A stretch of DNA of 64,000 nucleotides from Vicinamibacteria bacterium (GTDB lineage: Bacteria > Acidobacteriota > Vicinamibacteria > Marinacidobacterales > Marinacidobacteraceae): contig OZ219815.1 of the NCBI GenBank assembly GCA_964291235.2, positions 160,001 through 224,000 on the forward strand. Direction: 5' to 3'. Below, piece by piece: positions 5,401-56,171 of this stretch. The position numbers and the translations under genes were made by a program. The notes below the pieces were generated by a model. That model searched no databases, was not told the origin of the DNA, and saw only the letters and a list, made by a program, of their open reading frames with translations. How positions within the stretch are numbered: position 1 is the first letter of the stretch; every line of letters begins with the position of its first letter.

Positions 5401-6660
5401 TCAGTGGTCAACGGTGCGTAATGGCCGGTGTCGCCAGAGCAGCCAGTTCAGGAAGGTCGCCACCGCAGCCATCGCCACCACGATTCCAAAGGCCCCGTCC
5501 CAACCGTGAGCATCGATCAGATACCCCATCCCGACCCCCGTGAAGATCGCGCCCGCCGCTCCGATCCCGTCCACGATTCCGGAGGCGGAAGCCGAGGCTT
5601 TTGTCCCCCCGAAGTCCATCACCATGGCTCCCGACATCAGGGAATAGGGGCCGTAGAGCGTGAAGCCCACGAGCCCAAGCGCCGCTGCCAGCCAGAGGCT
5701 CTCCTCGGCCGGCAATCGGCTGAACAGGTAGATGGAGAGCGTGAGCACGACGCTCATGATCGCAAGCACCGGCCCCCGCCCGGCACCCACCCGGTCGGAA
5801 ACCCACCCGGCGGTTATGGAGCCCGCCGAACCGAGCAGCGGGAAAACTGCCGAGGCGGCGGCCGCGGCGCCGATCCCGGCGCCCGCCTGCACCAGGTAAT
5901 CCACCGACCATCCCCAGAAGGTGTAGCGGATCACGGAGAGCAACAGATAGCTTGTGCACATGATCCAAAACGCCGGGCTCGCCAGCATCCGGCGGCGCAA
6001 GCCGCCCCCCTGCCCGCTCCCGGCAACCGGATCGCGGAGCGTTTCCGGAGGCGCGGGAGCTGGCGGCGCGGCGGGCGGATCCGGCCGGATGAGGCGGTAG
6101 AGCGCGAGCCCGAGCAAAGCCAGCAGGCCGGCGTGCGCCCAAAAAAGTCCGGACCAGCCAAGCGCCACGACCAACACCGCGGCCGAAGCGCGGGCGGCGA
6201 AGTCGCCGAGCTGGTAGCTGATCGACATGAACCCCATCACCCGGCCGCTCTCCCGGCTGGGGTACCAGCGGGCCATGATCGGCATGATGGCCAGCCAGCC
6301 CATCGTCTGGAAATACGCGTTGACGCCCCAGACCGCGACGAAGAAGAGGAGTTCCCGGCCGAAACCGAAGACCGCGTTCATGAGCACGGAACCGAAGACG
6401 CCGATGAAGAACATCGCCTTGCCCCCGATGCGGTCACCGAGGAATCCGTTCAGAAGTTTCGACGCCGCGTACACCGCGAAGTACACCGACAGGATCAGCC
6501 CGGTCTCGGTGCTGGAATAGTCAAAGGCCTCCCCGATCAACGGTAGGGCCACCGGGAGCGTGACGCGGCCCAGGTAGTACCCCGCGTAGGCGACGAACAG
6601 GAGCACCGTCAGCAGCAGGCGCTGCCGCCCAAAACCCGGTGACTCCGCGACGCCCCTCAC
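5401..6660 (-). CDS. MFS transporter, organophosphate:Pi antiporter (GlpT/UhpC-like) family
   Basis: About 12 hydrophobic segments; YAGYYLGR, GFLGDRIG, WYPSRESG, GWVSDR; 15 bp upstream of the racemase gene. Confidence 0.85.
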   Translation of the reverse strand: MRGVAESPGFGRQRLLLTVLLFVAYAGYYLGRVTLPVALPLIGEAFDYSSTETGLILSVYFAVYAASKLLNGFLGDRIGGKAMFFIGVFGSVLMNAVFGFGRELLFFVAVWGVNAYFQTMGWLAIMPIMARWYPSRESGRVMGFMSISYQLGDFAARASAAVLVVALGWSGLFWAHAGLLALLGLALYRLIRPDPPAAPPAPAPPETLRDPVAGSGQGGGLRRRMLASPAFWIMCTSYLLLSVIRYTFWGWSVDYLVQAGAGIGAAAAASAVFPLLGSAGSITAGWVSDRVGAGRGPVLAIMSVVLTLSIYLFSRLPAEESLWLAAALGLVGFTLYGPYSLMSGAMVMDFGGTKASASASGIVDGIGAAGAIFTGVGMGYLIDAHGWDGAFGIVVAMAAVATFLNWLLWRHRPLRTVDH

Positions 6661-7169
6661 CTCAGCGCCCGCCGAGTTCGATCAATGCTTCCATCCGCGG
6701 GGGTGGGTCCCAACCGGTGCGTTCGGAGTGAGAAGAGGCCAGCCGCTAACAGCCCGTGGACGAGGTGGCGTGAGCACCGAGGCCCCGCCGGGGCACTGCC
6801 CTGCAAGAGGTGCGGCTGACCCAGTTCTCGCGGCGGCGCCAGACAGAGGAAGCCCTGGCGTACTTCGACCGAAGCGCAACGACGAGTGAAGCAAGGGCAA
6901 GCGGTTCAGCCGGTATGTTTGTTGGTCCAACGCCACCTCACCTCGTTTACAGGCTGTTCTCGCCGTGGAGCCGCAGGGCTGGCGGCCTCTCAATTACACT
7001 AGCCCCGGTTGCGGGGGAGGAATGTGGGGGGAGGAGAGTCTTGGTTCCGGCTGACTCCAGCCGCTCCACCCCCTCCGTCCCGACCACCGCTGACGGGGAC
7101 GCAACGCCCGGGTCGCCTTCTTCATCCTCCGCAGGCGCGAAGATCCGGCGTCGCAGATTCGAGTGAACT

Positions 7170-8252
7170 ATGAAATCCGGAACCAGGCCAGGACCAGCCA
7201 TGCGGCCCACCGGGCAAATCCGTGAACTGTCCGATGGGCTGAGAAGCGCGTTCGACGGATCGAACGTCAAGGACCGGGTGCAGGACTTCGAAGGATGGAC
7301 CGACCGGGCGTCCCACGCAGATTCCACCCGGGAGTACGACCACACGCGGACCGTCAGGGAGTACTACGACCTCTGTACCGAGTTCATGGTCTGGGGCTGG
7401 GGAGAATCCCTGCACTTTGCGCCGCTGTCGCCTTTCGAGAGCTTGGAGGACTCGAAGATCAGGCACCAGAGAGTCATGATCTCCAAACTCGACCTGCGTC
7501 CGGACATGACGGTGATTGATGTCGGCTGCGGGATCGGCGGTCCGATGCGCCGCGTCGCCCGTGAGGCCGGAGTCAGGGTTGTCGGGATCAACGCCAGTGA
7601 AGTCCAGAGCAACAAGGCCAGGCAATTGAACACCGCTGCGGGACTCGATGACATGACCGAATGTCTGCAATGCAGCTTCATGGACATGAGTGCGATCGCG
7701 GACGAGACCTTCGACCGTGGCTACGCGATCGAATCAACCTGCCATGCGGCCGACAAGGTGGGCGCGTTCGCCGAAATCTACCGTGTCCTGAAGCCCGGAG
7801 CTCTCTTCTGGGGCCAGGAAATGTGCATGACGGACATCTACGACCCGGGCAGCGACCAGCAACGCGCCATCAAGCGGGAGCTCATGCACGGCATCGCGCT
7901 CAAGGACATCGCGACGTTCGGCGAGGTGCATCGGGCGCTCGAAACCGCCGGATTCGAAGTCGTGGAGGGGGCGGATCTCGCCATCGGTCAACAGCGTCCG
8001 CACACGCCGTGGTATCAGCCCATGGAAACGCGGCGCGGGCTGCCCGGGAGCACTTTCCGCCGGATTCCGGTGGGTCGCAGGGCGACGGGGTGGGGAATCA
8101 GGATAGCGGAGTTCCTCGGTGTGTTCCCGAAGGGCTCGGCGGAGGTGGTCGCACTGCTGGATCGGACCGCAAACGCCTATGTCGCGGGGGGCAGGACGGG
8201 AATCTTCACACCGCTTTACTGCTTCGTGGCGCGCCGGCCTCTTTCGGGTTAG
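7170..8252 (+). CDS. smt: Sterol 24-C-methyltransferase (ERG6/SMT-like)
   Basis: YYDLCTEF..WGWGESLHFAP (region I), DVGCGIGGP (SAM binding), YAIESTCHA (region III), YRVLKPG, C-terminal GGRTGIFTPLYCFVARRP typical of the SMT C-terminal domain; start may be ATG7200. Confidence 0.88.
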   Translation: MKSGTRPGPAMRPTGQIRELSDGLRSAFDGSNVKDRVQDFEGWTDRASHADSTREYDHTRTVREYYDLCTEFMVWGWGESLHFAPLSPFESLEDSKIRHQRVMISKLDLRPDMTVIDVGCGIGGPMRRVAREAGVRVVGINASEVQSNKARQLNTAAGLDDMTECLQCSFMDMSAIADETFDRGYAIESTCHAADKVGAFAEIYRVLKPGALFWGQEMCMTDIYDPGSDQQRAIKRELMHGIALKDIATFGEVHRALETAGFEVVEGADLAIGQQRPHTPWYQPMETRRGLPGSTFRRIPVGRRATGWGIRIAEFLGVFPKGSAEVVALLDRTANAYVAGGRTGIFTPLYCFVARRPLSG

Positions 8253-8289
8253 CCCCGCCCACCTGGGGGCTCTTCCCCCCGCGCGCCCG

Positions 8290-11200
8290 TCAACCGGACG
8301 CCTCGCTGGCCAGTTCTCGCCGCGCCGAGGTCAGGCGCAGATGGAACGAGGAAAGCGCGGGCACCAGAAACACGATGAGGACCGTGGTGAAGACGATGCC
8401 GCAGCCGATCGAGGCGGAGAAGGGAACGAAGAACTGCGCCTGAATCGCGTCTTCGAGAATCAGGGGCGTGAAGCCGAGAAAGGTCGTCAGGGACGTCAGC
8501 ATGATCGGGCGGAAACGCCCCTTCGCACCCTCGATGATCGCGGTTCGCGCCGGGACGCCGTCCCGGAGTTTCTGATCGGTGAAATCGATCATCACCAGGG
8601 AATCGTTCACCACCACGCCGGCGAGGCCGAAGATCCCGACAAAGGATTGCGCGCTCACGGCTACCCCCAGCACCCAGTGACCCAGGATCACGCCGATGAA
8701 CCCGAACGGGATGATGGCCATGACGATGAACGGTTTGGTGTAGGAGCGCAGGGGGATGGCCAGCAGCGCGAAGATCATGAGCAGCGCGATCACGAATCCC
8801 CGATAGAGACCGCCCAGAGAGTCGAGTTGCTGCTGCTGTTCCCCTCCGAAGGTGTACGTGAGATCCGGGTTCTCGGCGATGAGCCCCGCCAGGATGGTGT
8901 TCTCGAGAATGTCATTGGCGGTCCCGGCGGAAATCACACTGGGATCGACGTCAGCGCTCACCGTGACCACGCGCTGGCCGTCCTGGCGCCGGATGGCCGG
9001 CGGGGAGGTGCCCGAACTCAGGGAAGCCACCCGGCTTATCGGCACGTCGGCGCCGGCTGGCGTCCGGAGCCGGTAACTTTCAACGTCGGTGATCGAGTTC
9101 CGCTGCTCCTCGGGCAGCCGGACGTAAACCCGAACTTCGTCACGTCCTCGCTGCACCCGGACGGCTTCCGCGCCAAAGAAGGCGGCTCGCGTCTGCCACG
9201 CAAGGTCGTCAAGCGTCAGGCCGAAGGTGCGCGCTTCGGGGAGCATTCCCACTTGGATCTCCGGGATGCCGGGAGTGTGATCCGAGCGGATGTCGAAGAC
9301 GCCGCCGACTCCGCCGAGATCTGCGACAGTGGAACTCGCGATCTCGTTGAGGCGTTCCGGATCCGGGTGGGACAGCGCGGCTTCGAGCGGGTTTCCCAGG
9401 GTGAAGATCTGGCTGAAGAAGGTGACCGCCCGCGCCTGAGGCAGGACACCCACCTCCTCACGCCATGCCTGGACGACATCTCCCGAAGTGATGCGCCGCT
9501 GCTGCGCACTCAGGAGCTTGAACTCGATGGTGGCGAGTTTGGCTTCCGGGTTCAGGGTGGGAGAGGGGTTGAGCCCCCCGGTCTCGATTCGAGACCGCCG
9601 ACCGACGACGACCGTAACGCCGGACAGCAGCGGAGGCGCATCCGCGGACCGGCCTTCGGAAAGCCGCTCGATGGCCCTGCGACCGGCCACTTCGAGTTCC
9701 TGCGCCACGGCGTACGTTTGCCGCGCGGTTGTGCCGTCCGGCATCTCGAGCGTGGCGATTGCGAAATCGCCTTCGACCTCGGTCGTGAAGACGGCCGGGA
9801 CGATGCCGGCGGGAATGAGCGAAACGCTCAGGATGAGCAGCGCCACGGCCCCCGAGACCGTTACCCCGGGCCAGTCCGTCGCGAACTGGATCCCGCGATC
9901 CAGCGGCCCTTGGACAAAGCTGTTCAGCAGTGAATCGACACGATTCTGGATTCGGGCGACGAATCGTTCGAAGCGCGTGCCGGGAACCCAATCCGGGCCG
10001 TGCAGATGATGGGACAGGTGGTTGGGCAGCACCAGCAGCGATTCGGCCAACGAAAACAGCAGCATGGCAATGACGATGATCGGCAGCGCCTTCCAGACCT
10101 CGCCGAACCCTGCAGGTATGAAGAGCAGGGGAACGAACGCCACGATCGTCGTCAGCACCGCGAAGATCAGCGGCACCTTGATGCGTCTCGCCCCCCGGAT
10201 TGCCGCCACGACCCCCTGCGCACCGCGCCTTCGTTCGAGGTGGATGTGCTCCGACACGACGATCGCATCGTCCACGACGATGCCGATGGCGAGTACGAAA
10301 GAGAAGAGCGACACCGCGTGGAGCGGAATGTCGAACACCAACATGGCGGCCAGCGCGCCGATTCCGGAAACGCCGAGACCGACGGCGACCCAGAAAGCCA
10401 GCCGGAGTTGGAGGAAAAGACCCAGCGCGAGCAGGACCAGCAACAGCCCCAAGGCCCCATTCTTGAGGAGTAGGGTGGCGCGCTCCACAAAGGTCGAAGA
10501 GTCGTCGAGCCAGATGTTGATGCCCACGCCGTCAGGGAGCATGGGGATCGCCTCGTTCGTGACGTAGCCGCGCACCGCGCGCGCCAAATCCATCACCTTC
10601 TCGCCGTCGGCTCGCGAGATGTCGACGAACACGGCAGGGTGGCCCTCGTGCCGGACGATCAGACCGGCGTCCTGGAAGCCGTCGCGCACCTCGGCAATGT
10701 CACCCAGGCGCACAACGGTGCCGTCGTCGTGCCCGAGGATGACGATGTCCTCGAAATCCTGCTGGTCGTAACTCTGACCGAGGGTCCGAATCCGCACCTG
10801 GGACTGCTCGGTATCGATGCTCCCCGCGGACAGGTCCAGGGAACCTCGGCGAATCGTATTGGCGATGTCGGTCAGCGTGAGCCCAAGAGCCCGCAACCGC
10901 TCCAGCGGCACCTCGATCGAGATCTCGTAGTTGCGCACCCCGCTGGTAGCGACCTGGGACACGTTGGGGAGCGCGGCGAGATCGTCCTCGATACGGTAGG
11001 CGAGTTCCTTCAGCGAGCGTTCGGGAACGTCGCCGTAGAGGATGAGGCGCATTGTGCTCTCGGCGTTCGTCATTTCCCGGATCTGCGGCCGCTCGGCACC
11101 TCCCGGGAAGGTCTGGATCCGCGCGACCGCCGACTCGATTTCATCCTTCTTGGCGTCCATGTCCGTCCCCGAGTTCACTTCGACCCTGACGGACGCCATC

Positions 11201-11493
11201 CCCGGGGCCGCTATGGAGCGGACCGCCTTCACGTCGGCCAGTCCCCGGACCTGATCCTCGATCTTGACGACGATGGCCTCCTCCACCTCTTCGGGCGTCG
11301 CGCCGGGAAACGGCACCGAGATTTCGAACTGGTTGAAGGGCACCGTGGGCCACCCTTCCTGCTCGAGGCCGGTCAGCGACACCAGGCCCACGGCGAGGAT
11401 GCCGAACATCAGCAGATTGGACGCGACGCCGTTGCTCGCCATGTAGGCGATCGGTCCGCGGGGTTCGGCGTGGTTGCCTCGGTCGGAACTCAT
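8290..11493 (-). CDS. RND efflux permease (AcrB/AcrD/AcrF family)
   Basis: ~1067 aa; PGATPEEVE, GIVVDDAIVVSE, RFRPIMLTSLTT; two large periplasmic loops. Confidence 0.93.
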   Translation of the reverse strand: MSSDRGNHAEPRGPIAYMASNGVASNLLMFGILAVGLVSLTGLEQEGWPTVPFNQFEISVPFPGATPEEVEEAIVVKIEDQVRGLADVKAVRSIAAPGMASVRVEVNSGTDMDAKKDEIESAVARIQTFPGGAERPQIREMTNAESTMRLILYGDVPERSLKELAYRIEDDLAALPNVSQVATSGVRNYEISIEVPLERLRALGLTLTDIANTIRRGSLDLSAGSIDTEQSQVRIRTLGQSYDQQDFEDIVILGHDDGTVVRLGDIAEVRDGFQDAGLIVRHEGHPAVFVDISRADGEKVMDLARAVRGYVTNEAIPMLPDGVGINIWLDDSSTFVERATLLLKNGALGLLLVLLALGLFLQLRLAFWVAVGLGVSGIGALAAMLVFDIPLHAVSLFSFVLAIGIVVDDAIVVSEHIHLERRRGAQGVVAAIRGARRIKVPLIFAVLTTIVAFVPLLFIPAGFGEVWKALPIIVIAMLLFSLAESLLVLPNHLSHHLHGPDWVPGTRFERFVARIQNRVDSLLNSFVQGPLDRGIQFATDWPGVTVSGAVALLILSVSLIPAGIVPAVFTTEVEGDFAIATLEMPDGTTARQTYAVAQELEVAGRRAIERLSEGRSADAPPLLSGVTVVVGRRSRIETGGLNPSPTLNPEAKLATIEFKLLSAQQRRITSGDVVQAWREEVGVLPQARAVTFFSQIFTLGNPLEAALSHPDPERLNEIASSTVADLGGVGGVFDIRSDHTPGIPEIQVGMLPEARTFGLTLDDLAWQTRAAFFGAEAVRVQRGRDEVRVYVRLPEEQRNSITDVESYRLRTPAGADVPISRVASLSSGTSPPAIRRQDGQRVVTVSADVDPSVISAGTANDILENTILAGLIAENPDLTYTFGGEQQQQLDSLGGLYRGFVIALLMIFALLAIPLRSYTKPFIVMAIIPFGFIGVILGHWVLGVAVSAQSFVGIFGLAGVVVNDSLVMIDFTDQKLRDGVPARTAIIEGAKGRFRPIMLTSLTTFLGFTPLILEDAIQAQFFVPFSASIGCGIVFTTVLIVFLVPALSSFHLRLTSARRELASEASG

Positions 11494-11560
11494 CGGCAAG
11501 GGGCGGGGCGGATCCAGAAATGCGCTCGCGTGTCGGTCGCGCGGCTATCGGCCTCCGCGC

Positions 11561-13582
11561 TCACACGGGATTCGGGATTTGCGCGACCCGGAACTTCAGT
11601 TTCCGGTTCGGGGCCAGGGTCGGGAACGGATTGATGCCCAGCTTGTAGTTGTCGGGCGCCACTTCAAGCTGCAGGTGATACGCGATGAGCAGGACGTTCA
11701 CGGCCATCTGAAGCTCCACCCACCGATGGCCGAGGCACATGTGCGTACCCAGGCCGTAGGGCGCATAGGCGCCCGGTTGCAAATGTTCCGCCCGGTCCGG
11801 GAGGTACCGATCGATGTCGAACTTCAGGGGATCCTTGTACAAGTCATCGGAATAGTGCGGCACCGTCTGGCAAATCAATGCCATCGTCTTCGTCGGTATC
11901 CCGTATCCACTGACAACGCACTCGTTCATGACCGTTCTCAACTGCCAGGGAATCACTGGATACATACGCGAGGATTCCATGCAGAGACGAACCGTGACGT
12001 CGACGCTGTCGTGACTGAAATCATCGTCCTTCGGTTCACGACCGTTACCGAAGAGCGACTCCGCCTCACTACGGATCCTCGCGTACACCTCCGGGTTGCG
12101 AACCATGTTGTACACCGCGAAGGCGAGTCCGCTGCCGAGGTAGATGCTGGCAACCATGGCCGCCACGAACGGAAACGTAAGGTCGGTTTCGGGCAAGAAC
12201 TGTGGATCGCTCTTGTGGAGCTCGAGAAGCGCATCGGCGATGTCCCGGGGCTTCCCCTTGCGCTGGGCCGGCGTGTGTGATGCCGTGATCGCCTCCTGGA
12301 GGCTCTTGACATGCCTTCCGTAGCGTTTCATTCTCGGCGTGGACAGCATGAAATCCGGCAAGGCGCCCTGAACCCGCGTTACCAGCGCGCGGTGTTCAAA
12401 AGCCAGCAACTCGTCCACATAGTGGCTGCAGTCCACTCCCATCGTGAGGTGCGAGATCTGACTGCTGATGTGGTGTTGAAAGCTCTCGGTGCCGCGGAAG
12501 ATGTCCCCCTGTTGCCACCGGCCCAGCGACTTGCGGCAGTCGTCGATCAGCTCCGGTAGTCGCCGCGCCAACGTGGCCCGGGAATACGCGCTCTGGAGCG
12601 ACTTTCGCATTCGATAGTGTTCGGCCCCATCCATTCCCGGCAGGCTCCGGGAGGCTCCGAATGCACGTTCCAGCCGCTCGATGTAGTCCTTGGAACGGAG
12701 GTAGAATCGCCCGTGCTGGTTTACCCAGCGATTGACATCCGGACCCATCAAGGCAACCACCGGCGCACCCCGGATCTTGAAGGGCATTCGGACGACGGGT
12801 CCCTGTTGTCGGTAGATACCGTGCATCGCCTTCGGGATGTTGCCCGAAAGGAAATCACGTTCCCGCAGGACACCGAGGAATCGGAGCCGCGGAATGGGTT
12901 TGGTCCGGAGAACGCGGCGGGTCTTCGGCTTCGCGGTGCTGTCCTTCACGGCGGCGGCAACCGTCCGCCCGATGAGATCCAGCCTGGCTACCAGTTCGAT
13001 GCGGTCGAGGCGCTCGTCGTAGTCCTCTTCCTCGAGCAGCATCTTGAACCCGCCACAGGTGTGCATCAGGGCCACGAGGATCGCATCGCGCGGGTCGGGT
13101 ATCTCGTCGTTCAGGATGACGCTCAGGACTCTCGTCTTGGATTCGCCGCGGGACTCGGCGGCTTGGGCCGGGTAGGTTCCCGAATGGGAGACATCGCGAG
13201 AGAGGCCCCAGAATCCGCCGGTCTGGTGCGTGAGGATGTTCCGCTCCACCAGGCGGTCGAGCGTTGCCGCCACGATCTCGTCGGTGCGGCGCGCGTTTCG
13301 TTCGATCCAGAACTGGGCGTCCGATTTCTCATCGGACTCGGCGATGTCCTTGAGCGTCGGGTCGAGCAGGTCGTCGCCGGTCGGGGTGGGGTCCACCAGG
13401 TACAGCCGTTCCAGATCGGTCTCGATGCGCCGTTCCAGCGCCAGGTCGGCGAGCACCGCTCCGGCCATGACACAGGAGAAATCCCATCCCGGAACCATTT
13501 CCAGATAGCCGCTCTGCTCGTCGAGCATCAGGAGGATCAACTCCTCGGCGATGCGGATCGGGAACTGGGTAGCCGCGCTCAT
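11561..13582 (-). CDS. GPP34 (GOLPH3/Vps74-like) domain fused to cytochrome P450
   Basis: N-terminal IAEELILLMLD...AGAVLADLAL..RI...LLD...LVERNIL...PDPRD..LVAL pattern; C-terminal ExxR (ESSR), DPLKFDIDR, PYGLGTHMCLG heme motif; GGAGG precedes ATG13582. Confidence 0.85.
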   Translation of the reverse strand: MSAATQFPIRIAEELILLMLDEQSGYLEMVPGWDFSCVMAGAVLADLALERRIETDLERLYLVDPTPTGDDLLDPTLKDIAESDEKSDAQFWIERNARRTDEIVAATLDRLVERNILTHQTGGFWGLSRDVSHSGTYPAQAAESRGESKTRVLSVILNDEIPDPRDAILVALMHTCGGFKMLLEEEDYDERLDRIELVARLDLIGRTVAAAVKDSTAKPKTRRVLRTKPIPRLRFLGVLRERDFLSGNIPKAMHGIYRQQGPVVRMPFKIRGAPVVALMGPDVNRWVNQHGRFYLRSKDYIERLERAFGASRSLPGMDGAEHYRMRKSLQSAYSRATLARRLPELIDDCRKSLGRWQQGDIFRGTESFQHHISSQISHLTMGVDCSHYVDELLAFEHRALVTRVQGALPDFMLSTPRMKRYGRHVKSLQEAITASHTPAQRKGKPRDIADALLELHKSDPQFLPETDLTFPFVAAMVASIYLGSGLAFAVYNMVRNPEVYARIRSEAESLFGNGREPKDDDFSHDSVDVTVRLCMESSRMYPVIPWQLRTVMNECVVSGYGIPTKTMALICQTVPHYSDDLYKDPLKFDIDRYLPDRAEHLQPGAYAPYGLGTHMCLGHRWVELQMAVNVLLIAYHLQLEVAPDNYKLGINPFPTLAPNRKLKFRVAQIPNPV

Positions 13583-13762
13583 CCTCTTCGACCTCCAGAT
13601 CGAGCGGCTTGAGGCCAAGCCACCAGCCCCTCTGGATGGTCCGGTTGAAATACTAGTCCATTCGCAGGCGGCCGGCGGGTCCGGATTCCCCTGGGATCAC
13701 GACCGCCATCCCCGATGGCGCGCGCCAGAAAGCTGGCCGCGCGCGTGGGTAGAGTAGAAGGC

Positions 13763-15142
13763 ATGGGTGAAGTGAAGGGCAGAACGCCGCGGAGGATTGC
13801 CATCGTGGGTGGGGGCGTCTCGGGCCTGGGGGCCGCCTGGGCGCTCCATCAGCATCCGGACCGCTTCGATTTCCGGCTGTTCGAAGCGCAGGCGCAGCTC
13901 GGCGGCAACGCGATCACCGCCGACATGCCGCAGGACGACGGAAGCACGATCCCGTTCGATATCTCCGTCACCGCCTGTATTCCGTCGGCATACCACCACT
14001 TTGTCCTGCTCATGCAGCAACACGGTATCGAGCTGATCGATACCCGGTTCAACTACAGCGTGAGGTATCGAGGCCAGACATATGCCCATGATTTCGACTC
14101 GGACATCAGGCGGCAGTTGCGGCCCGAAATCGAGAAGTTCCAGCGGCTCCTGAAACGTCTCCATTGGTGGGGGCGGCTCAACCTGTCCCGGTCCAAACTG
14201 CTCAGTGCATGCAATCCGTTCAACTACGTCAGCATGGGCGCGCTGTTGAACCTGGGCAGGTACTCGGGGGACTTCCGGTACAAGGTTCTGAAACCCATGT
14301 TCGTCAATTTCCTGATGGCGACGAACGTGTTCGACATGCCGGCGTCGCTCTTTTCTCGGTATCTGGATTTCTTCGACATCGAAACCGCGACGCCGATGCA
14401 GACGTGGGACCAGGGAACGCGGCGGATCTATCAGGAGCTCTCCGCGGCCTTCCCGGAGAAGATCTACCTGAACCGGCCCGTGCGAAAGGTTCACCGGCGC
14501 CGTACCGAAGTAGTCGTAGAGGACGAGAACGGTACGACCGAGACGTTCGATGACGTCGTTTTCGCGTGCAACGCGAACCAGACGCTGATGCTCCTGGACA
14601 AGCCGACGCGGCTGGAGGGTTGGCTCCTCTCCTCGATCCGGTACGAGAGCGAACTGCACAACCATACGGTCGTCCACTCGGACGCCTCGGTCCTTCCGGA
14701 TAATGAGGTCCAGCCATTGGCCACCCGGAGCAACCACATCGAGCAGTACGGTGCGAGGCCCGACAACTACGAAATCACCTACATCATGCACAACCAGCAG
14801 CCGTGGGCGAACAGGTCGGACAAGCCATGCCTCGTGACCTACAACCCGATCAGTCATATCGACGACAGCAAGATCGTCAAGAAGTGGTGGTTTCAGCACA
14901 TCGTGCACGACGTGCCTCACGTGACGTTTCTGACCCAGATGTTTCGCTTCGTTCAGGGCCGGAGGCGAACCTGGCACTGTGGCGCCCACACCCTGATCAA
15001 CAGCCAGGAGACCTGTTTCGTTTCCGGCCTCGTGACGGCGAGGCAGCTCGGAGCCGGCTACCCGTTCCAGGATCCTGAAGCCAGGAAATGGTTCAACTTC
15101 TACGGACGCGTGATGTACGGCTGGCGCTTCAAGGCCGCGTAG
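13763..15142 (+). CDS. FAD-dependent oxidoreductase, COG2907-like (amine-oxidase-fold desaturase/isomerase)
   Basis: IAIVGGGVSGLGAA Rossmann motif, FEAQAQLGG, FDDVVFAC, VHSDASVLP, QGRRRTWHCGA, QETCFVSG; ORF track starts at 13715. Confidence 0.8.
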   Translation: MGEVKGRTPRRIAIVGGGVSGLGAAWALHQHPDRFDFRLFEAQAQLGGNAITADMPQDDGSTIPFDISVTACIPSAYHHFVLLMQQHGIELIDTRFNYSVRYRGQTYAHDFDSDIRRQLRPEIEKFQRLLKRLHWWGRLNLSRSKLLSACNPFNYVSMGALLNLGRYSGDFRYKVLKPMFVNFLMATNVFDMPASLFSRYLDFFDIETATPMQTWDQGTRRIYQELSAAFPEKIYLNRPVRKVHRRRTEVVVEDENGTTETFDDVVFACNANQTLMLLDKPTRLEGWLLSSIRYESELHNHTVVHSDASVLPDNEVQPLATRSNHIEQYGARPDNYEITYIMHNQQPWANRSDKPCLVTYNPISHIDDSKIVKKWWFQHIVHDVPHVTFLTQMFRFVQGRRRTWHCGAHTLINSQETCFVSGLVTARQLGAGYPFQDPEARKWFNFYGRVMYGWRFKAA

Positions 15143-16157
15143 CCTCGCGATTCGCGGGCTCGGCGTAGAACTGTCGGCAGTAGCGCCGGTACATCCCGAT
15201 CTCGCCGTCGGAGCGGCACAGGCTCGGGCGCGACCGGTACCGTTTCCGGCTCCAGATCTCCACGTCCTGCCTGACGTCGTGCTTCTGGAAGGTCAGCATC
15301 AACTTGTTCATGAGGTCGGTGCGGAGGGCCGGGGGGAGGAATCTCAGCCCCACGATCGGCCGTTTCGGTTTCCTGAGCCGCCGCAACTGGCTGACCAGCA
15401 CCAGATCGATCAGCGTGCCATCGACGGGCGTCGCTAGCACCCACAGGCGCCCGTCCATTCCAATGGACCGCTCGTGGAACTCCACGAACGAATATCCGAG
15501 CCCGACGACATGGGCGGTGGCAGAGACATCGAACGCGAGATCCACGATCCCGGCGACGCTTTGCGTGCGCCTGAAGTCAAAGCTACTCACCAGATGGGCG
15601 CCGTCCACGGTTACCGCGCCGACCCGACCGACATTGCCGTAGCCGTGCACGTACCGGAGGTGCGCCATGTCCACGGCGTTCTCACTCGTTTCCTGGGGGT
15701 GTCCCCGAAACCGGAGAGTCCGGAACGCCAATTCACACCAGTCGTCCCCGCCGGAAGGCTCTTCGGGAAGGCTCCACTGAGGGGGTCGTCGGTCGATGCC
15801 CCACCAGGCGAAGACGATGCCAAGGATTTCCCGCGTCTCGAATGCCGTCAGCTTCGCGGTCTTCGGCGGCGGGGCAAAGGGAGTGGCGACGCATTGCCCG
15901 CTGACGTCGAACTCGTAGCCGTGAAAGGGACAAACAAGACGGCCATCGCGCACCCGGCCGCCGGCGGCGGGGCCCAGTTCGGACCCGAGGTGCGGACAGA
16001 CCGACTCGGCCACCGAGATCCCGCCGGCATCGTCGCACCAGGCGACGATGTTCTTTCCCATCCAGGACTTCTGGATGAGCTTCACCTTCTCCAGGGACCG
16101 CCGGGTGGCAACGAAATACCAGCCCTCCGGGTACGGAGAGAGCGTGGATTCACTCAT
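15129..16157 (-). CDS. Rieske [2Fe-2S] non-heme iron oxygenase, KshA/Neverland(DAF-36)-like sterol oxygenase/desaturase
   Basis: PYPEGWY, CPHLG...CPFHG, ENAVDMAHLRYVH, QDVEIW..K.Y...P.L...DG.I..YRRYCRQFY; the true start is ATG16157 inside the 818-aa track ORF. Confidence 0.85.
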   Translation of the reverse strand: MSESTLSPYPEGWYFVATRRSLEKVKLIQKSWMGKNIVAWCDDAGGISVAESVCPHLGSELGPAAGGRVRDGRLVCPFHGYEFDVSGQCVATPFAPPPKTAKLTAFETREILGIVFAWWGIDRRPPQWSLPEEPSGGDDWCELAFRTLRFRGHPQETSENAVDMAHLRYVHGYGNVGRVGAVTVDGAHLVSSFDFRRTQSVAGIVDLAFDVSATAHVVGLGYSFVEFHERSIGMDGRLWVLATPVDGTLIDLVLVSQLRRLRKPKRPIVGLRFLPPALRTDLMNKLMLTFQKHDVRQDVEIWSRKRYRSRPSLCRSDGEIGMYRRYCRQFYAEPANREATRP

Positions 16158-16252
16158 GCGTACTGACCGGCATTCTCGCCCAAGACTCGTAGCTCCTCCG
16201 CCGCCCCACCCGGCGGATCTGAATTCCAGGTGATCGAACTTCGCTTCGAGCG

Positions 16253-17473
16253 CTACTCCGCTGTCCGCACCCGCATTCCCTCGGTCGCGAACTGGATCCC
16301 ACCCACGACCACCTTCTGGCCGTCCTGTAGTCCACCGGTGACGTACACGTCGTCGTTGAAGCGTTGGAGCACGCGAACCGGCACAATCGTCACCGCATCG
16401 TCTCTGAGCGCCCAGACCTCGTTGCCCGGCCTGAGCGCCAGACGCCGGATCCGAAAGTACGCCTCGGGAGCGGCGCCGCCAATCTCGACATCCACAAACT
16501 GACCGACCAGCAGGGGCGGCGCCGAGAGCCCGGCCGGAGATTCGGCGCCCTCGCTCCCGTTGCGGCCCTCCACCGGGGAACCACCCACGAAGGGGTTCGG
16601 GACGCGCACGATCACATCGAGAGTCCGGGTCCCTTCGTCCACTGCCGCCTCGAATCGGTCCACGGTTCCCGCCCAGGCATAGCTGGTGGTTCCGTGCCTG
16701 GCGATGACGCGGGCTGCAACCCTGGTGTCTCCGGAGCCGGCCCGAAGTTCCCAAAGGCCCGGGATGAGCGCCGCGTCGGCGTCGGAAAGGGATACCACGA
16801 TCTCGACCGCATCGGAGGCGTAGATCGCTCCCACGCTCATTCCGGCGGTCACGAATTGCCCGACGCCCACCGTTTCGTGCCGGACTACGGCGTCGAAGGG
16901 CGCCTGGACCGCGGTCCGCGAGAGCAGGAGTTCGGCCTCCGCCAGGAGGGCGCGGTCCCGTTCCAGGGCAGCCCGCGCCGCCTCGAGTTGGGGCTCCCAC
17001 TGCGCCAGGGGACTGACGTCCGCGTTTTGTCCATCGCCCGCCCGGCTTCGGAACGCAGCGTACTGCTCCTTCGCGATCCGTGCTTCTTCCTCGACCTTCA
17101 GCAACTCGACCTGCTGGACGGCGACGCTGGCGCGCGCCTGCTCTCTCCGGTGGCGGTAGTCGGCGTCGTCGAGGCGGAAGACGACCTGGCCCTCGGTCAC
17201 CCGGCCGCCGCTTTCGAAAGCCGGATCGACCCAGACCACGCGTCCGCTCACCCCCGCGGCCACGTCCACCTGCACCCGAGGCCGCACGGTTCCGCTGCCG
17301 TACACCGGAATTGCGCCGGAGCCGGCGACCGCCGGGGCGGTGGACGCGAAGGGAATCTGCGAGGGAGGCTCCCGCCGCTCGGGTTCCGGCCGCTGGGCGA
17401 CCAGCAGGGCCGCAATCCCGAAGGATGCCAGCAGGATCGCCGCCGCCAGGACATATCCCTTGGTTCGATTCAT
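16253..17473 (-). CDS. RND periplasmic adaptor (membrane fusion protein)
   Basis: N-terminal TM; VSGRVVWV, coiled-coil hairpin, VQAPFDAVV, VGQFV, GLQDGQKVVV. Confidence 0.92.
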   Translation of the reverse strand: MNRTKGYVLAAAILLASFGIAALLVAQRPEPERREPPSQIPFASTAPAVAGSGAIPVYGSGTVRPRVQVDVAAGVSGRVVWVDPAFESGGRVTEGQVVFRLDDADYRHRREQARASVAVQQVELLKVEEEARIAKEQYAAFRSRAGDGQNADVSPLAQWEPQLEAARAALERDRALLAEAELLLSRTAVQAPFDAVVRHETVGVGQFVTAGMSVGAIYASDAVEIVVSLSDADAALIPGLWELRAGSGDTRVAARVIARHGTTSYAWAGTVDRFEAAVDEGTRTLDVIVRVPNPFVGGSPVEGRNGSEGAESPAGLSAPPLLVGQFVDVEIGGAAPEAYFRIRRLALRPGNEVWALRDDAVTIVPVRVLQRFNDDVYVTGGLQDGQKVVVGGIQFATEGMRVRTAE

Positions 17474-19017
17474 CGGTCCGTCGCTCCTTTGGCCGTGGCG
17501 CGGGATCCGTCCATCGGTGCGCGGGCGATCTCGTCCGGAGGCGTCCAGGCGCCTCCCAGGGCGCGGTGAATGGCCAAACGGGCAAGAGAGAGGTTCCGTT
17601 CGGAACCCGCGAGAGCGGATTCCACCTCCAGGAGGTTCCCGGTGGCGTCCAGCAGGTCGCGGTAGCCGCCTACCCCCGACTCGTAGCGTTCTTTCTGGAG
17701 ACCCACGGAGGCTTGCGCCTCCTCCTGCTGCGCCAGCAACGATGCGCGGCGACGGCCCTCGTTCCTCAGCGTGGCAAGGGCCGCTTCCACCTCGTTCACC
17801 GCGGTCACCACCGTCTGCCCGTAGGCAGCGGCCAGTTCGTCAAAACGGAACTCGGCCAATTCGACGCCCTTCGCCAGGCGGCCGCCGTCGAACACCGGCC
17901 GAAGCAGGTTGGACGCCAGGTTCGCGAACCACTGCTGCACGTCGAACAGCCCGCCGCCATCCGTGCTCTGGAGCCCGATGGACCCACGGAGCGAGAGTTG
18001 CGGCATCAACGCCGCGCGACGCGCTTCGGCGGCGTGGCTGGCGGCCTCCAGCCGGTGTCCCGCCGCCTGGACGTCCGGCCGCTGCGACAGGAGGTCCGCC
18101 GGGATTCCGGCCGGCACAGGATCCACGGCAAGGGCGGAAGAAAGGGAATCGGGAAGGATCGCCATCACATCCTTGCGATACCCACCAAGCAGGATCGCGA
18201 GCCCGGATTCCGCCTCGGCAAGCTGGTTCTGGATTCCGGGCATTCCGGCCTCGGCGGCCGAAAGCGCCTGGCGCACGCGGTAGAGGTCGCTCGACCTCGC
18301 GAGTCCGCGTTCGTAGCGACCCCTGACCAGCCGCTCGCGCTCCTCCAGTACCTCTACCTGCCGCCGGGTGACGGTGAGTTGCCGCCGCAAATGGCCGATC
18401 TCAAAGTAAGCCGCGATCGTCTCGGCGAGGATTCCGATACGTGCGGCCTGCAGGTCGAACTCCGAGGCGAGCAGCTCGGATCCCGCGGCGAGCGCGGTGT
18501 GACGGGCGCGGCCCCAGAAATCGGCTTCGTAGGCGAAGTCGGCGCTCAGGGAATAGGTCGGGAAACCCAGCCGGTCGGGAAGCGGAAAGTCAAGGCCGAG
18601 ATCCTCGAGCTGCGCGCCAATGGCGGCGTTGGTCGGCACGTCGAAAGCATCGACCCCGGCGCGGGCTCCGACCACCGGCAGGATCGCCGCGTCGGCCAGC
18701 CGAGCCCGCGTCCTGGCCTGTTCGACCCGGGCCACCGCTTCCGCGACGGAAAAGTTGGAAGCGAGCACCGATTCGACCACCTGGTCGAGCGCCGGATCGG
18801 CGAAGGCCCGCCACCACTCCTGCGCCCGGTAGGGGCCGGCGCCGGGAGTCTCGACGAAGTCGCTCGGCAACTCCGGAGCCGCCTCCTGCGCTGGGGCCGG
18901 AGGAGCGGATCCGGAGACCAGGGAGCAACTGCCGACACCGCCGCCGACCAGGAACACGAAGCCCCAGGCGACGCCGATGGACGCCTGGATCTTCTGGCTG
19001 TTCAATCCGAGCAACAC
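17470..19017 (-). CDS. Outer membrane efflux protein (NodT/OprM family)
   Basis: WWRAFADPALD, YEADFWGR, PADLLSQRPDV, FDGGRL, RALGGAW; ATGA overlap with the MFP gene; GGAGGAGG before GTG. Confidence 0.92.
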   Translation of the reverse strand: MLLGLNSQKIQASIGVAWGFVFLVGGGVGSCSLVSGSAPPAPAQEAAPELPSDFVETPGAGPYRAQEWWRAFADPALDQVVESVLASNFSVAEAVARVEQARTRARLADAAILPVVGARAGVDAFDVPTNAAIGAQLEDLGLDFPLPDRLGFPTYSLSADFAYEADFWGRARHTALAAGSELLASEFDLQAARIGILAETIAAYFEIGHLRRQLTVTRRQVEVLEERERLVRGRYERGLARSSDLYRVRQALSAAEAGMPGIQNQLAEAESGLAILLGGYRKDVMAILPDSLSSALAVDPVPAGIPADLLSQRPDVQAAGHRLEAASHAAEARRAALMPQLSLRGSIGLQSTDGGGLFDVQQWFANLASNLLRPVFDGGRLAKGVELAEFRFDELAAAYGQTVVTAVNEVEAALATLRNEGRRRASLLAQQEEAQASVGLQKERYESGVGGYRDLLDATGNLLEVESALAGSERNLSLARLAIHRALGGAWTPPDEIARAPMDGSRATAKGATDR

Positions 19018-19039
19018 GCCTCCTCCGGACCTGAACCCG

Positions 19040-19068
19040 AGTTTATTCCAGAGGGGGCACGGCTCGAA
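19040..19068 (-). promoter_or_regulatory. Putative sigma70-type promoter for the OMF-MFP-Rieske unit
   Basis: TTCGAG-N17-TAAACT on the minus strand shortly upstream of the OMF RBS. Confidence 0.35.
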
Positions 19069-19095
19069 ACGAGATCGGCCGGCGCGGCGGGACGA

Positions 19096-20811
19096 TCACC
19101 AGCCGGCGGCGTGGCCCTCGCGCCGTTTGTCGGGTCCGCCGGAGAGGACTCCCGAACCGGGATAGATCTTGATCGCGTTCAGCATTCCGATCCGGTTCGG
19201 CGGCTGTCGGAGACGGTGGCCCCGGGCGTTCAGAGCCTCCCGCACCTCGTCGGAGAAGTCCTTTTCCAGGACGAGATCGGTTCCGTCCATGTACGGAATC
19301 GAGTTCGCCAGGTAGCGGACCACGAAACGCGGCGCGTCCACCGCCGCCGGCGCGTCCATCTCGTAATCCAGCGCTCGCACCAGCACCTGCACGATGGTCT
19401 GGGGAATCGTCCAGCCTCCCGCCGATCCGAGCGCGAAGTAGGGCTTGCCGTAGCGGGTCACGATGGTGGGGCTCATCACGAAGCGCGGCCGCTGACCACC
19501 CTCGATGACGTTCACGTCCTCGGTATCCAGGCTGAAGTAGGACATGCCGTTGTTGAAGATGATCCCGGTCTCGGGCACCACCACTCCCGCCGGAAGCATG
19601 AGCGTCTGGGTGATCGTCACCACGTTGTGGTCCTTGTCCACCACGGTGTGGTGGGTGGTGTGCTCGACCGCGGTGGGCAGGTCGTTCGTGGAGTGGACCG
19701 CCGCGTGAAACCGGGCGCGCGACGGGTCGATCCGGGCCGCCTGTTCGGCCGCGTATTCCTTGGAGAGCAGCCGGTCGAGCGGGATCCGGGCGTAGTCCTT
19801 CCCGGTGTTGTAGGCGTCCTCGTCCACGAAGGCGAGCTTCATGGCCTCCGAGACCAGGTGGACGAACTCCTCGGAGTTGTGTTCGAGCGCCGGCACATCG
19901 AACTGCTCGAGGATGTTCAGCGTCTGGAGAACGGTCATCCCCGAGCCGCCCGGCGGCTGGCTGTAAACCGTGTGGCCCCGGTAGGTAGTCGAGAGCGGTT
20001 CGCTCCAGCGAGCCCGATAGTTCTGGAAGTCCTCCACGGTGAGGATGCCGCCGTTTTGTCGGAAAAAGTCCACGACGGTCTCCGCCAGCCTTCCGCCGTA
20101 GAACACTTCCGGCCCGTCCGCGGCGATCGCCCTGAAGGTCTTCGCCAGGTCGGGCTGTTTCAGGATCTCGCCCACCGGCCAGGGCTTGCCGGCCTCGAAG
20201 AAGATGCTGGCGCCGTAGGGGTAGCGCGCCACGTCGGCGCCGAACCCACTGGTTCCAAAGGAGCCGTTCACCGCGGGGGTGACCGCAAAACCCCCCTCGG
20301 CGTATTCGATCGCCGGAGCCAGGACTTCGGCCCAGGACATCGAGCCGTACTCCTCGAGAAGCGCCGTCCAGCCGGCGAGGTTTCCGGGAACGAGCGGCGC
20401 CAGGAAGCTGTCGCGGGCGGGGTGGGTCCGGTCCCAGAGCTGGCTCCCCGCGGTAAACGCTTCGGGATCCGCCGCCGCTGGAGCCGCGCCGATGAAGTCC
20501 ACCGACCGGATGTCCCCCGTTTTTGCGTCGTGGATCAGGGCGTAGCCCCCGACGCCGCCGAGCCCGGACATCAGCGGTTCCACGACCGCTTTCACGGCCG
20601 CGCTCGCCACCGCGGCGTCGAAGGCGTTCCCGCCTGCCTGGAGCATGCGAAGCCCGGCCTGCGCCGCGAGCGGATGAGAGGTCACCACCATCCCGTTGAC
20701 GCTCATCCCGGCGCCTTCGGCGGGCTCGCGTAGCGAGGACGCGAGCAGCAGCGGGAGCCCCAGCAGCGGAGCCGCCCAGATGAGGGAGATTCGCCGTTTC
20801 GCGCGCATCAT
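19096..20811 (-). CDS. ggt: Gamma-glutamyltransferase
   Basis: GMVVTSHPLA, GGNAFDAAV, QPPGGSG, HTTH Thr nucleophile, FNNGM, GSAGG, DKRREG; signal peptide after ATG20811. Confidence 0.92.
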   Translation of the reverse strand: MMRAKRRISLIWAAPLLGLPLLLASSLREPAEGAGMSVNGMVVTSHPLAAQAGLRMLQAGGNAFDAAVASAAVKAVVEPLMSGLGGVGGYALIHDAKTGDIRSVDFIGAAPAAADPEAFTAGSQLWDRTHPARDSFLAPLVPGNLAGWTALLEEYGSMSWAEVLAPAIEYAEGGFAVTPAVNGSFGTSGFGADVARYPYGASIFFEAGKPWPVGEILKQPDLAKTFRAIAADGPEVFYGGRLAETVVDFFRQNGGILTVEDFQNYRARWSEPLSTTYRGHTVYSQPPGGSGMTVLQTLNILEQFDVPALEHNSEEFVHLVSEAMKLAFVDEDAYNTGKDYARIPLDRLLSKEYAAEQAARIDPSRARFHAAVHSTNDLPTAVEHTTHHTVVDKDHNVVTITQTLMLPAGVVVPETGIIFNNGMSYFSLDTEDVNVIEGGQRPRFVMSPTIVTRYGKPYFALGSAGGWTIPQTIVQVLVRALDYEMDAPAAVDAPRFVVRYLANSIPYMDGTDLVLEKDFSDEVREALNARGHRLRQPPNRIGMLNAIKIYPGSGVLSGGPDKRREGHAAGW

Positions 20812-40103: not shown

Positions 40104-40251
40104 GCTACGGAGACGCTAACACCACCGGATCCGGGACAGGGCCTGGTGAGCCATACCGTGACGAACGCGACGGCCCGATACACAGCACCGCGTCGGCTGC
40201 CGCGGCGCCCCCTCCGGTACGATGGACAAACTCGCTTGGCGGAGGGAAACC

Positions 40252-52881: not shown

Positions 52882-52885
52882 GTCG

Positions 52886-53680: not shown

Positions 53681-53688
53681 CCTGTGGT

Positions 53689-54858: not shown

Positions 54859-54877
54859 AGACGGGTTGCCGTAAACG

Positions 54878-56158: not shown

Positions 56159-56171
56159 GGCGGGGGTTGTA

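Follow-up and report, generated by a model that had tools for sequence, protein, structure and literature searches.

A 64,000-nucleotide stretch of a Vicinamibacteria genome (contig OZ219815.1, positions 160,001 to 224,000 of the forward strand; hereafter the window) encodes at 11561..13582 on the minus strand a single protein in which a domain of the GPP34 (GOLPH3/Vps74-like) family precedes a cytochrome P450. The source assembly comprises 3.45 Mb in 2 contigs and is 90.3% complete. The longest open reading frame (ORF) at the locus, 11561..13618 (-), specifies 685 residues from a TTG codon; the ATG at 13582, with GGAGG 9 nt before it, is the likely start and gives a protein of 673 residues. 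The features of the gene are as follows.

11561..13582, minus strand: GPP34-cytochrome P450 fusion gene of the GPP34_L type, 673 residues (ORF, start, both Pfam domains, AlphaFold2 model)
12944..13552, minus strand: GPP34/GOLPH3-like domain, residues 11-213, net charge -19, with a predicted beta-hairpin at 117-127 containing GGFW (Pfam, PDB profile, Foldseek, VIA-align)
12875..12943, minus strand: basic linker, residues 214-236, net charge +7, ending in T[KR]PIP that leads into the P450 fold (sequence, charge)
11624..12889, minus strand: cytochrome P450 domain, residues 232-653 (Pfam, ExxR, heme motif, fold)
12134..12151, minus strand: atypical I-helix segment A478-S-I-Y481-L-G483, which replaces AGx[DE]T and is one residue shorter (alignments)
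11735..11737, minus strand: codon of the heme-ligand Cys616 (invariant across 44 family members; seen in 70 of 73 copies, with gaps in the other 3)

A first-pass annotation made from the letters of the window had described one uninterrupted frame in which a GPP34 domain is followed by a basic linker and then a complete P450, and this description was borne out by the ORF, the Pfam searches and the linker sequence. The N-terminal domain matched GPP34 (PF05719) at residues 11-213 with an E value of 2.1e-34 and 119.8 bits (cut-off 29.1), the match extending over positions 1-199 of the 201 in the profile, and the C-terminal part matched p450 (PF00067) at residues 232-653 with an E value of 2.8e-33 and 115.8 bits against a cut-off of 22.8. 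No stop codon or frameshift separating two genes was seen, a possibility that had been raised together with the description. Both Pfam domains were present in all 120 homologue clusters among the matches listed (69-100% identity, 671-704 residues), and 43 of the 150 representatives listed at 50% identity, counted by hand from the table of such representatives, were 637-872 residues long and matched over both domains down to 26% identity. The two halves were adjacent and in frame at 75 of 77 genome loci. The domain junction was also spanned by contigs of three other studies, one covering 11927-13800, one covering 11935-13121 without gaps and the third contributing a number of short pieces that overlap. 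Indels were listed against these contigs only at 13596 and 13676, both upstream of the ATG and none inside the ORF. The explanation that an error of assembly or annotation wrongly joined two neighbouring genes is already refuted by these clusters, representatives, loci and contigs; no point in its favour was found and its probability is practically nil. The fusion of GPP34 and P450 in one bacterial gene is real and the observation is confirmed.

The architecture is already published. The long form GPP34_L was defined in a recent study (Microbiome 2025;13:4, PMC11706023), the main text of which reports the combination of GPP34 and P450 in 656 of 663 long forms. The window protein is a member of this class, and the view in the first-pass annotation that bacterial GPP34 proteins are normally stand-alone is thus outdated. 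The same main text describes GPP34_L as exclusive to sponge symbionts, the GPP34 family as largely absent from their free-living relatives and GPP34_L as expressed in a sponge metatranscriptome, and it proposes that GPP34_L is a secreted effector binding phosphatidylinositol 4-phosphate (PI4P). The published proteins and the one described here have in common the N-terminal GPP34 and C-terminal P450, an occurrence in many phyla and signs of horizontal spread. In contrast to the secreted PI4P effector proposed there, the window protein has a degenerate pocket, a cytoplasmic look and neighbours of the lipid-tailoring and export type. The words sterol, methyltransferase, efflux, signal peptide, R90 and binding site appear 0 times in the body text of PMC11706023, the PDF supplements (Figs S10-S13) being outside this check. 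No paper tying GPP34-P450 proteins to sterols, Rieske proteins or RND transporters was found in a search that had most subscription journals outside its range.

The identity of the N-domain was evaluated by profile and by predicted fold. A 16-row profile of the domain matched GOLPH3 (3KN1) in the PDB with an E value of 4.8e-11 and Vps74 with ∼1e-6. The AlphaFold2 (AF2) model of the domain alone had a predicted local distance difference test score (pLDDT) of 84.6, and the top 8 PDB matches returned for it by Foldseek were all GOLPH3/Vps74 (E 2.5e-8 to 4.5e-5), followed at rank 9 by a match with E 0.3. The structural comparison with GOLPH3 that the first-pass annotation had suggested therefore matched GOLPH3/Vps74 only among PDB folds. 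Alignment with VIA-align produced Z scores of 18.4 for GOLPH3 (rmsd 3.2 over 198 residues), 16.8 for Vps74 and 16.6 for a third GOLPH3/Vps74 chain, the next unrelated chain reaching only 3.5. The ESM Atlas queried with the N-domain returned only bacterial GOLPH3/VPS74 clusters. The results from sequence profile and model indicate that the N-domain is a true GOLPH3 homologue. Features shared with GOLPH3 and Vps74 (3KN1, 9QPQ, 2ZIH) are the fold (Z 16.6-18.4 over 193-198 aligned residues), the tryptophan corresponding to W81 of GOLPH3 (W33 in the fusion), the projecting beta-hairpin and an association with lipid- or glycan-modifying enzymes, for which the domain is an adaptor in eukaryotes and a fused part in the bacterial protein. 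The fusion differs from GOLPH3 and Vps74 in the loss of R90, R171 and R174, in a deletion of 10 residues ahead of the R171/R174 helix and in its strongly acidic character. It differs also in being covalently joined to its enzyme rather than binding client tails in trans, and in belonging to bacteria, which have neither Golgi nor COPI.

The PI4P pocket of GOLPH3 is set by W81, R90, R171 and R174, according to the passages of PMC2806290 on this pocket. In the profile alignment these residues correspond to W33, A40, D101 and V104 of the fusion protein, the mapping of R171 and R174 adjoining the 10-residue deletion, which lies just before those two positions. Among 73 copies (the window and 72 loci) W33 was conserved in 72, A40 in 71, D or E at position 101 in 70 and V, L or I at position 104 in 69, and arginine at the R90 position occurred in 0 of 44 representatives of the whole fusion family. 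The net charge of the domain was negative in 43 of these 44 representatives. Since the three basic pocket residues are gone and the domain is strongly acidic, the GPP34 domain of the fusion, as judged from its sequence, is probably not a PI4P reader, and a GOLPH3-style electrostatic, PI4P-dependent dock appears unlikely. The strands of the predicted hairpin occupy residues 117-120 and 124-127; the GGFW sequence is invariant in the 16-row alignment, and 71 of 73 copies retain F124 and W125. The corresponding hairpin mediates formation of the GOLPH3 dimer and the Vps74 tetramer, as stated in PMC2806290 where oligomers are treated. No transmembrane (TM) helix was found in the fusion protein by hydropathy, the top 19-residue segment (1.97) being the buried I-helix, and the N-terminus, judged by eye without a predictor, is not signal-peptide-like. 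The first-pass annotation had proposed that the GPP34 domain replaces the TM anchor of eukaryotic sterol P450s by docking the enzyme on a membrane, or else serves as a scaffold for the remaining enzymes of the cassette. The hydropathy result agrees with the lack of an anchor. Docking as such is favoured by the GOLPH3 fold, the F124/W125 hairpin and the adjoining transporters, whereas a GOLPH3-like mode of docking is disfavoured by the lost basic residues and the charge of -19. Possible roles for the domain include a hydrophobic-hairpin dock, a partner-binding module and an integral structural domain.

The linker has a charge of at least +2 in 71 of 73 copies of the clade, with values from -4 to +7 in the wider family, and the P450 domain has a net charge of +9. 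Across 68 copies the identities of the N-domain and C-domain to those of the window were closely correlated (r 0.925; means 0.693 and 0.690). Since these identities track each other, both domains have moved and diverged jointly, with comparable constraint on each. The full-length AF2 model (pLDDT 89.9; predicted template modelling score, pTM, 0.86) suggests that GPP34 and P450 are held in a fixed mutual arrangement.

The P450 domain contains the residues expected of a heme enzyme, with E536 and R539 (ExxR), H614 and C616 invariant in 44 family members and Cys616 held in the heme motif YGLGTHMCLG. Foldseek identified a class-II-like fold with P450DA, BM3, Methylococcus capsulatus CYP51, CYP184A1 and CYP120A1 as matches (target TM-score about 0.8, 15-20% identity). 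The best solved relatives by sequence were CYP51 (E 4.5e-20, over residues 375-647 only), CYP24A1 and CYP46A1. Assignment as a CYP51 was rejected because the I-helix HHTS of CYP51 aligns to IYLG of the window protein; no CYP51 model was among the NCBIfam hits, all of which fell far below cut-off (e.g. pentalenene oxygenase, 77.9 bits against 800). The one-residue gap in the I-helix was present in 12 of 44 representative rows (the window and 11 others), 10 of which read A-[SAG]-x-Y; the 32 rows without the gap had [DE]T in 24, HT in 4 and other residues in 4. The tyrosine form was found in all locus copies, and Y481 was kept in 70 of 73. Since the acid-alcohol pair of the I-helix is exchanged for a conserved Ala-Ser-x-Tyr-Leu-Gly, the P450 probably activates oxygen in an unusual way or runs a non-standard, perhaps non-monooxygenase, reaction. 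Comparable P450 fusion enzymes are the CYP51-ferredoxin fusion of M. capsulatus (6MCW), the CYP51 of which is among the best sequence and fold matches of the window P450, and P450 BM3, which are likewise class-II-like bacterial P450s with an extra domain in the chain. In these proteins the extra domain is a C-terminal electron donor, whereas that of the window fusion is N-terminal, GOLPH3-like and non-redox; the I-helix His-Thr of CYP51 aligns to Tyr-Leu of the window P450.

The fusion gene is flanked on both sides by genes for enzymes and transporters, as listed below.

7170..8252, plus strand: sterol C-methyltransferase (SMT) homologue, 360 residues (Sterol_MT_C PF08498, E 6.6e-18, 65 bits against 21.7; Methyltransf_11)
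8290..11499, minus strand: RND (AcrB-family) inner-membrane permease (ACR_tran, E 1.8e-149; NCBIfam RND subfamily models below cut-off)
13715..15142, plus strand: FAD amine-oxidase-family protein, divergent from the fusion gene (Amino_oxidase, E 5.6e-17; LkcE, E 3.2e-26)
15129..16157, minus strand: KshA-like Rieske non-heme oxygenase, 342 residues from the ATG at 16157 (Rieske and KshA_C; KshA 4qdc, E 2.3e-26)
16253..17473, minus strand: RND periplasmic adaptor (membrane fusion protein) (HlyD_3; TIGR01730, 145.8 bits against 94.9)
17470..19017, minus strand: outer-membrane efflux channel of the NodT/TolC family (OEP; TIGR01845, 268.5 bits against 210)

The fusion gene is followed 61 bp downstream by the permease gene, which has the same orientation. 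The SMT homologue is the sole such gene in the genome. It contains the segment WGWGESLHFAP resembling SMT region I, and its best solved matches were generic small-molecule methyltransferases. An assignment of the Rieske protein as the sterol C-4 methyl oxidase SdmA was rejected, the score being 35 bits against the cut-off of 600 for NF052579. The genes for the flavin oxidase (+) and the Rieske protein (-) converge with a 14-base overlap at 15129-15142. A scan of 6600-19200 for promoters and terminators revealed nothing above shuffled sequences. The GC content dips to 0.617-0.635 at 10-16 kb, compared with 0.65-0.71 elsewhere in the window, and this dip over the core of the island is consistent with a foreign origin.

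The conservation of this neighbourhood was evaluated in a census of 77 genome loci, all from records of metagenome-assembled genomes (MAGs), by tblastn of the window proteins within ±10 kb of the fusion. With identities of 45-87%, the loci span Acidobacteriota, Rhodothermales, Gammaproteobacteria, Spirochaetia, Nitrospirales, Latescibacterota and other groups. Genes of the cassette recurred as follows: Rieske in 48 of the 77 loci, RND permease in 46, adaptor in 41, outer-membrane channel in 34, SMT homologue in 32 and flavin oxidase in 27. Genes of the window's flanks outside the cassette were found in far fewer (GGT 10, proline racemase 7, MFS 7). For the 52 loci with full flanks, at an identity floor of 40% and with the Rieske protein, SMT homologue and flavin oxidase counted as enzymes, at least one enzyme was present in 46, at least one pump part in 36, both in 33 and none of these in 3. 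The proposal of the first-pass annotation that the gene sits in a cassette with sterol-type enzymes is thus in agreement with the domain searches and the locus census. The order and strand of the cassette genes vary between phyla, and the outer flanks contain unrelated housekeeping genes. De novo clustering of the ORFs of the loci brought out no additional gene with a wide distribution. Small ferredoxin ORFs were sought at the 77 loci by crude motif matching, a weak test that gave 7 implausible hits only. An MMPL transporter with a match to the sterol-sensing domain lies near the fusion in 10 loci (e.g. L068:16715-19051), some of them from Nitrospirales, and a LolA-like gene in 5 (e.g. L057:13722-14795); the AcrB-type pump was not found by tblastn within ±10 kb at L064, L067, L068 and L070. 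Rarer neighbours were FA_hydroxylase (4 loci), squalene/phytoene synthase (4), LytB (5), SAM synthetase (5), SAH hydrolase (5) and TetR (3). A second GPP34-P450 paralogue was observed a few kb from the first at L003:13594-15639, L021:17353-19401 and L024:7744-9774, the L024 copy being highly divergent with a branch length of 0.86.

In a quick maximum-likelihood tree of 69 copies the 7 phylum labels require 8 changes, and Rhodothermota is nested inside Acidobacteriota. GPP34 matches with E <= 1e-10 occurred in 40 of the 401 species genomes sampled from Acidobacteriota; in only 14 of the 40 did the match lie in a frame of fusion size (661-812 residues), and these were concentrated in few genera. 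The tree, this patchy distribution, the 45-87% identity across phyla and the GC dip speak for horizontal spread of a compact gene island between bacterial phyla, one element of the interpretation given below. Relatives of the fusion include proteins with two GPP34 domains before the P450 (P0127, 872 residues), with two GPP34 domains alone (P0178, 444 residues) and with GPP34 followed by a small Rieske-ferredoxin-like domain (P0264, 314 residues; N-domain 46% identical to that of the window). Reading P0264 as a fusion of GPP34 to the Rieske oxygenase of the cassette was rejected, with 32% identity over 56 residues.

The source genome contains one GPP34 domain and five P450s. No match to squalene or oxidosqualene cyclase (SQHop_cyclase) was found in this 90.3%-complete genome. 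Two homologues of the ERG4/ERG24 family of sterol reductases are encoded at C1:294547-295596 and C2:1855712-1856770, both as isolated genes, one of them adjoining a short-chain dehydrogenase. The presence of these homologues without a cyclase hints that the organism may modify sterols that it does not make itself. The cyclase search was extended to 30 other fusion-bearing genomes, which yielded a clear full-length cyclase in 7, no hit in 12 and ambiguous hits only in 11. Hits not counted as clear were matches to PF13243 with E ∼1e-55 in frames of 1137-1670 residues and ∼1e-22 in frames of 620-665 residues; if the ambiguous hits are cyclases, the genomes without a clear cyclase drop from 23 of 30 to 12 of 30. 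A clear cyclase was missing in both Vicinamibacteria genomes, the clade nearest the window in the tree, and no cyclase hit at all was obtained for 5 of 5 Rhodothermales and 3 of 3 Spirochaetia. Since many fusion-bearing genomes are without a clear cyclase, the island would therefore be independent of a cyclase in the same cell.

Sterol genes of sponge-associated bacteria have been reported. The text of PMC10070321 describes SMT homologues of sponge symbionts with in vitro methylation activity on sterols, their genes being clustered with sdmA, sdmB and erg genes. P450, Rieske and GPP34 are mentioned neither in this text nor in three supplements to it, and efflux, amine oxidase and three short peptide motifs of the window SMT homologue were not found in the supplements. 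Horizontally transferred ERG24-CYP51-LSS clusters in sponge MAGs are reported in PMC9531527, where GPP34 is unmentioned. These clusters and the window island are alike in being habitat-linked and horizontally transferred and in combining an SMT homologue and a Rieske oxygenase in one cluster. The sponge clusters differ by including an oxidosqualene cyclase and have been interpreted as pathways of de novo synthesis, whereas the window genome, like at least 12 of 30 relatives, lacks a cyclase. Furthermore, the Rieske protein of the window is not an SdmA equivalog, and the RND pump is part of the window island.

The interpretation to which we give an about even chance is that the GPP34_L protein of the window is a cytoplasmic enzyme tailoring sterol-like lipids, encoded in a horizontally spread modify-and-export island that acts on exogenous sterols. 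The island would combine the P450, the KshA-like Rieske protein, the SMT homologue and the LkcE-like flavin oxidase with a tripartite RND efflux pump. The likeliest substrates would be sterols or sterol-like polycyclic lipids not made by the bacterium, since its genome is without a squalene or oxidosqualene cyclase. The P450 domain may modify the lipid, the other enzymes of the cassette may tailor it further, and the pump may move substrate or product across the envelope. The GPP34 domain would be an integral adaptor module placing the P450 at the inner membrane, a partner protein or the substrate. The sterol flavour of this interpretation derives from the Sterol_MT_C score of 65 bits, the KshA-like Rieske protein, the finding that CYP51, CYP24A1 and CYP46A1 are the best solved relatives of the P450 and the in vitro activity on sterols of SMT homologues from sponge symbionts (PMC10070321). 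The data show the architecture, the fold, the lost residues, the conserved neighbourhood and the lack of a cyclase; the sterol substrate, the direction of transport and docking on a membrane are inferred from neighbourhood and family membership.

Several observations weigh against the interpretation. The putative sterol substrate is inferred from the family names of neighbouring genes. The SMT homologue matches the sole solved 24-sterol methyltransferase weakly (E 7.7e-6) and has no NCBIfam equivalog match, the Rieske protein fails the SdmA equivalog, the closest solved relative of the flavin oxidase (LkcE) acts on a polyketide amide and not a sterol, and the subfamily models on which the RND permease scores are all generic ones for multidrug pumps, with cut-offs that it does not reach. 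A ferredoxin or reductase gene was not found in the window cassette. Two squalene/phytoene synthase (SQS/PSY) genes in the genome offer a self-made acyclic isoprenoid as a possible substrate. The acidic charge of GPP34 disfavours simple electrostatic docking on an anionic bacterial membrane, and the packing of the two domains is a prediction from the pTM. Nine of the 77 loci are without any cassette gene, 3 of these being loci with full flanks (L058, L065 and L066). Finally, all 77 loci belong to the clade with the atypical I-helix, so that the census describes this clade and excludes the canonical AGxDT fusions.

According to the model published in PMC11706023, sponge symbionts use their GPP34 proteins, including the long forms, as secreted effectors, which bind PI4P of the host and redirect the maturation of the phagosome, such that the symbiont is not digested. 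The true homology of the domain to GOLPH3/Vps74 and the patchy distribution within Acidobacteriota are in accord with this model, as are the occurrence of the family in sponge symbionts, its near absence from free-living kin and the expression of GPP34_L in metatranscriptomes, which the main text of that paper reports. Such an effector is difficult to reconcile with a PI4P pocket in which three of four residues are exchanged (in 69-71 of the 73 copies), with the lack of an arginine at the R90 position in the 44 representatives and with the negative charge of the domain. The protein has neither a TM helix by hydropathy nor, by eye, a signal-peptide-like N-terminus, the domain is fused to an intact heme enzyme, and the gene lies immediately upstream of an RND permease and in the company of lipid enzymes in most loci; pocket residues, signal peptides and neighbouring genes are not examined in the main text of PMC11706023. 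The effector proposal therefore appears to fit the sequence poorly, and we regard it as very improbable for the window protein. An unlikely explanation, albeit with an appreciable chance, is that the island detoxifies or expels non-sterol metabolites of the host or community (e.g. terpenoids, alkaloids or polyketides). A toxic compound would be modified by the oxygenases and methyltransferase and then expelled by the multidrug-type RND pump, the sterol-like family names being coincidental. The generic multidrug-type matches of the RND parts are consistent with detoxification, as are the relationship of the flavin oxidase to LkcE from polyketide biosynthesis, the generic methyltransferases among the best matches of the SMT homologue, the generic fold matches of the P450 (BM3, P450DA, CYP184A1) and the TetR regulators in 3 loci. 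Less easily accommodated are the Sterol_MT_C score well above cut-off, the KshA_C-type Rieske genes in 48 of 77 loci, the sterol-sensing-domain MMPL transporters that take the place of the AcrB type in 10 loci, the occasional FA_hydroxylase, squalene/phytoene synthase and LytB neighbours and the two ERG4/ERG24 homologues in the genome.

The role of GPP34 can also be explained by assembly rather than membrane docking, an alternative that we consider decidedly unlikely. Like Vps74 and GOLPH3, the domain would oligomerise through the beta-hairpin or bind a partner, bringing the P450 to other proteins, GPP34-tagged or of the cassette, for example an electron donor, the Rieske protein or the pump. 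The part played by the hairpin in the GOLPH3 dimer and Vps74 tetramer (the oligomer passages of PMC2806290) is in agreement with this role, as are the invariant GGFW and the retention of F124 and W125, the relatives P0127, P0178 and P0264 with a doubled GPP34 or a Rieske-ferredoxin-like partner, the contrast between acidic GPP34 and basic linker and P450, and the conservation of GPP34 to the same degree as the catalytic domain. On the other hand, the Rieske domain of P0264 differs from the cassette oxygenase, and since the genome encodes a single GPP34 domain, this organism has no second GPP34 protein with which a hetero-assembly could form.

A tailoring role in the modification and export of sterol-like lipids would have consequences beyond the window. 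The main text of PMC11706023 reports GPP34_L among the most consistent gene-level hallmarks of sponge-symbiotic bacteria, and the conserved SMT homologue, steroid-type Rieske protein and lipid transporters provide a concrete and cheaply testable alternative to the effector proposal. If true, this alternative would supply the first functional clue for bacterial GPP34 domains, would add a non-redox fusion partner to P450 biology and would bear on which organisms make or remodel the unusual sponge sterols used as geological biomarkers; many genomes carrying the fusion appear, by the cyclase search, to be unable to cyclise squalene. A bolder version, to which we give little credence, is that bacterial GPP34, as an adaptor keeping lipid-modifying enzymes at a membrane or a transporter, is a prokaryotic counterpart of enzyme retention by GOLPH3, joined in this clade to a P450 without canonical oxygen activation, and that cyclase-less symbionts rework host sterols and re-export them with the aid of SMT, Rieske and RND proteins, the sterol inventory of sponges being partly shaped in this way. 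Were this the case, bacterial islands of this type would have a share in the unusual sponge sterols, side-chain-alkylated biomarker precursors among them.

Further P450 genes and unusual proteins were observed outside the island. A second, small P450 (420 residues) is encoded in the window at 53689-54951 (-), with genes of the acetoacetate-decarboxylase family, the LigB-dioxygenase family and a glutamine-synthetase-like type as neighbours within 52009-56509. Elsewhere in the genome, at C1:863202-870000, two canonical P450s in tandem (Pfam E 8e-75 and 6e-83) precede a radical SAM protein, a flavoprotein of Trp-halogenase-like type and an AMP-binding enzyme, and this stretch has the appearance of a separate natural-product-like cluster. 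Eukaryote-like or repeat proteins of the DUF5107-TPR, Sortilin/BNR, leucine-rich-repeat and Spondin_N types are encoded in the window (21642-24587 and 36891-40115), elsewhere in the same genome (L079:11117-12373) and in a relative (L008:20571-21428).

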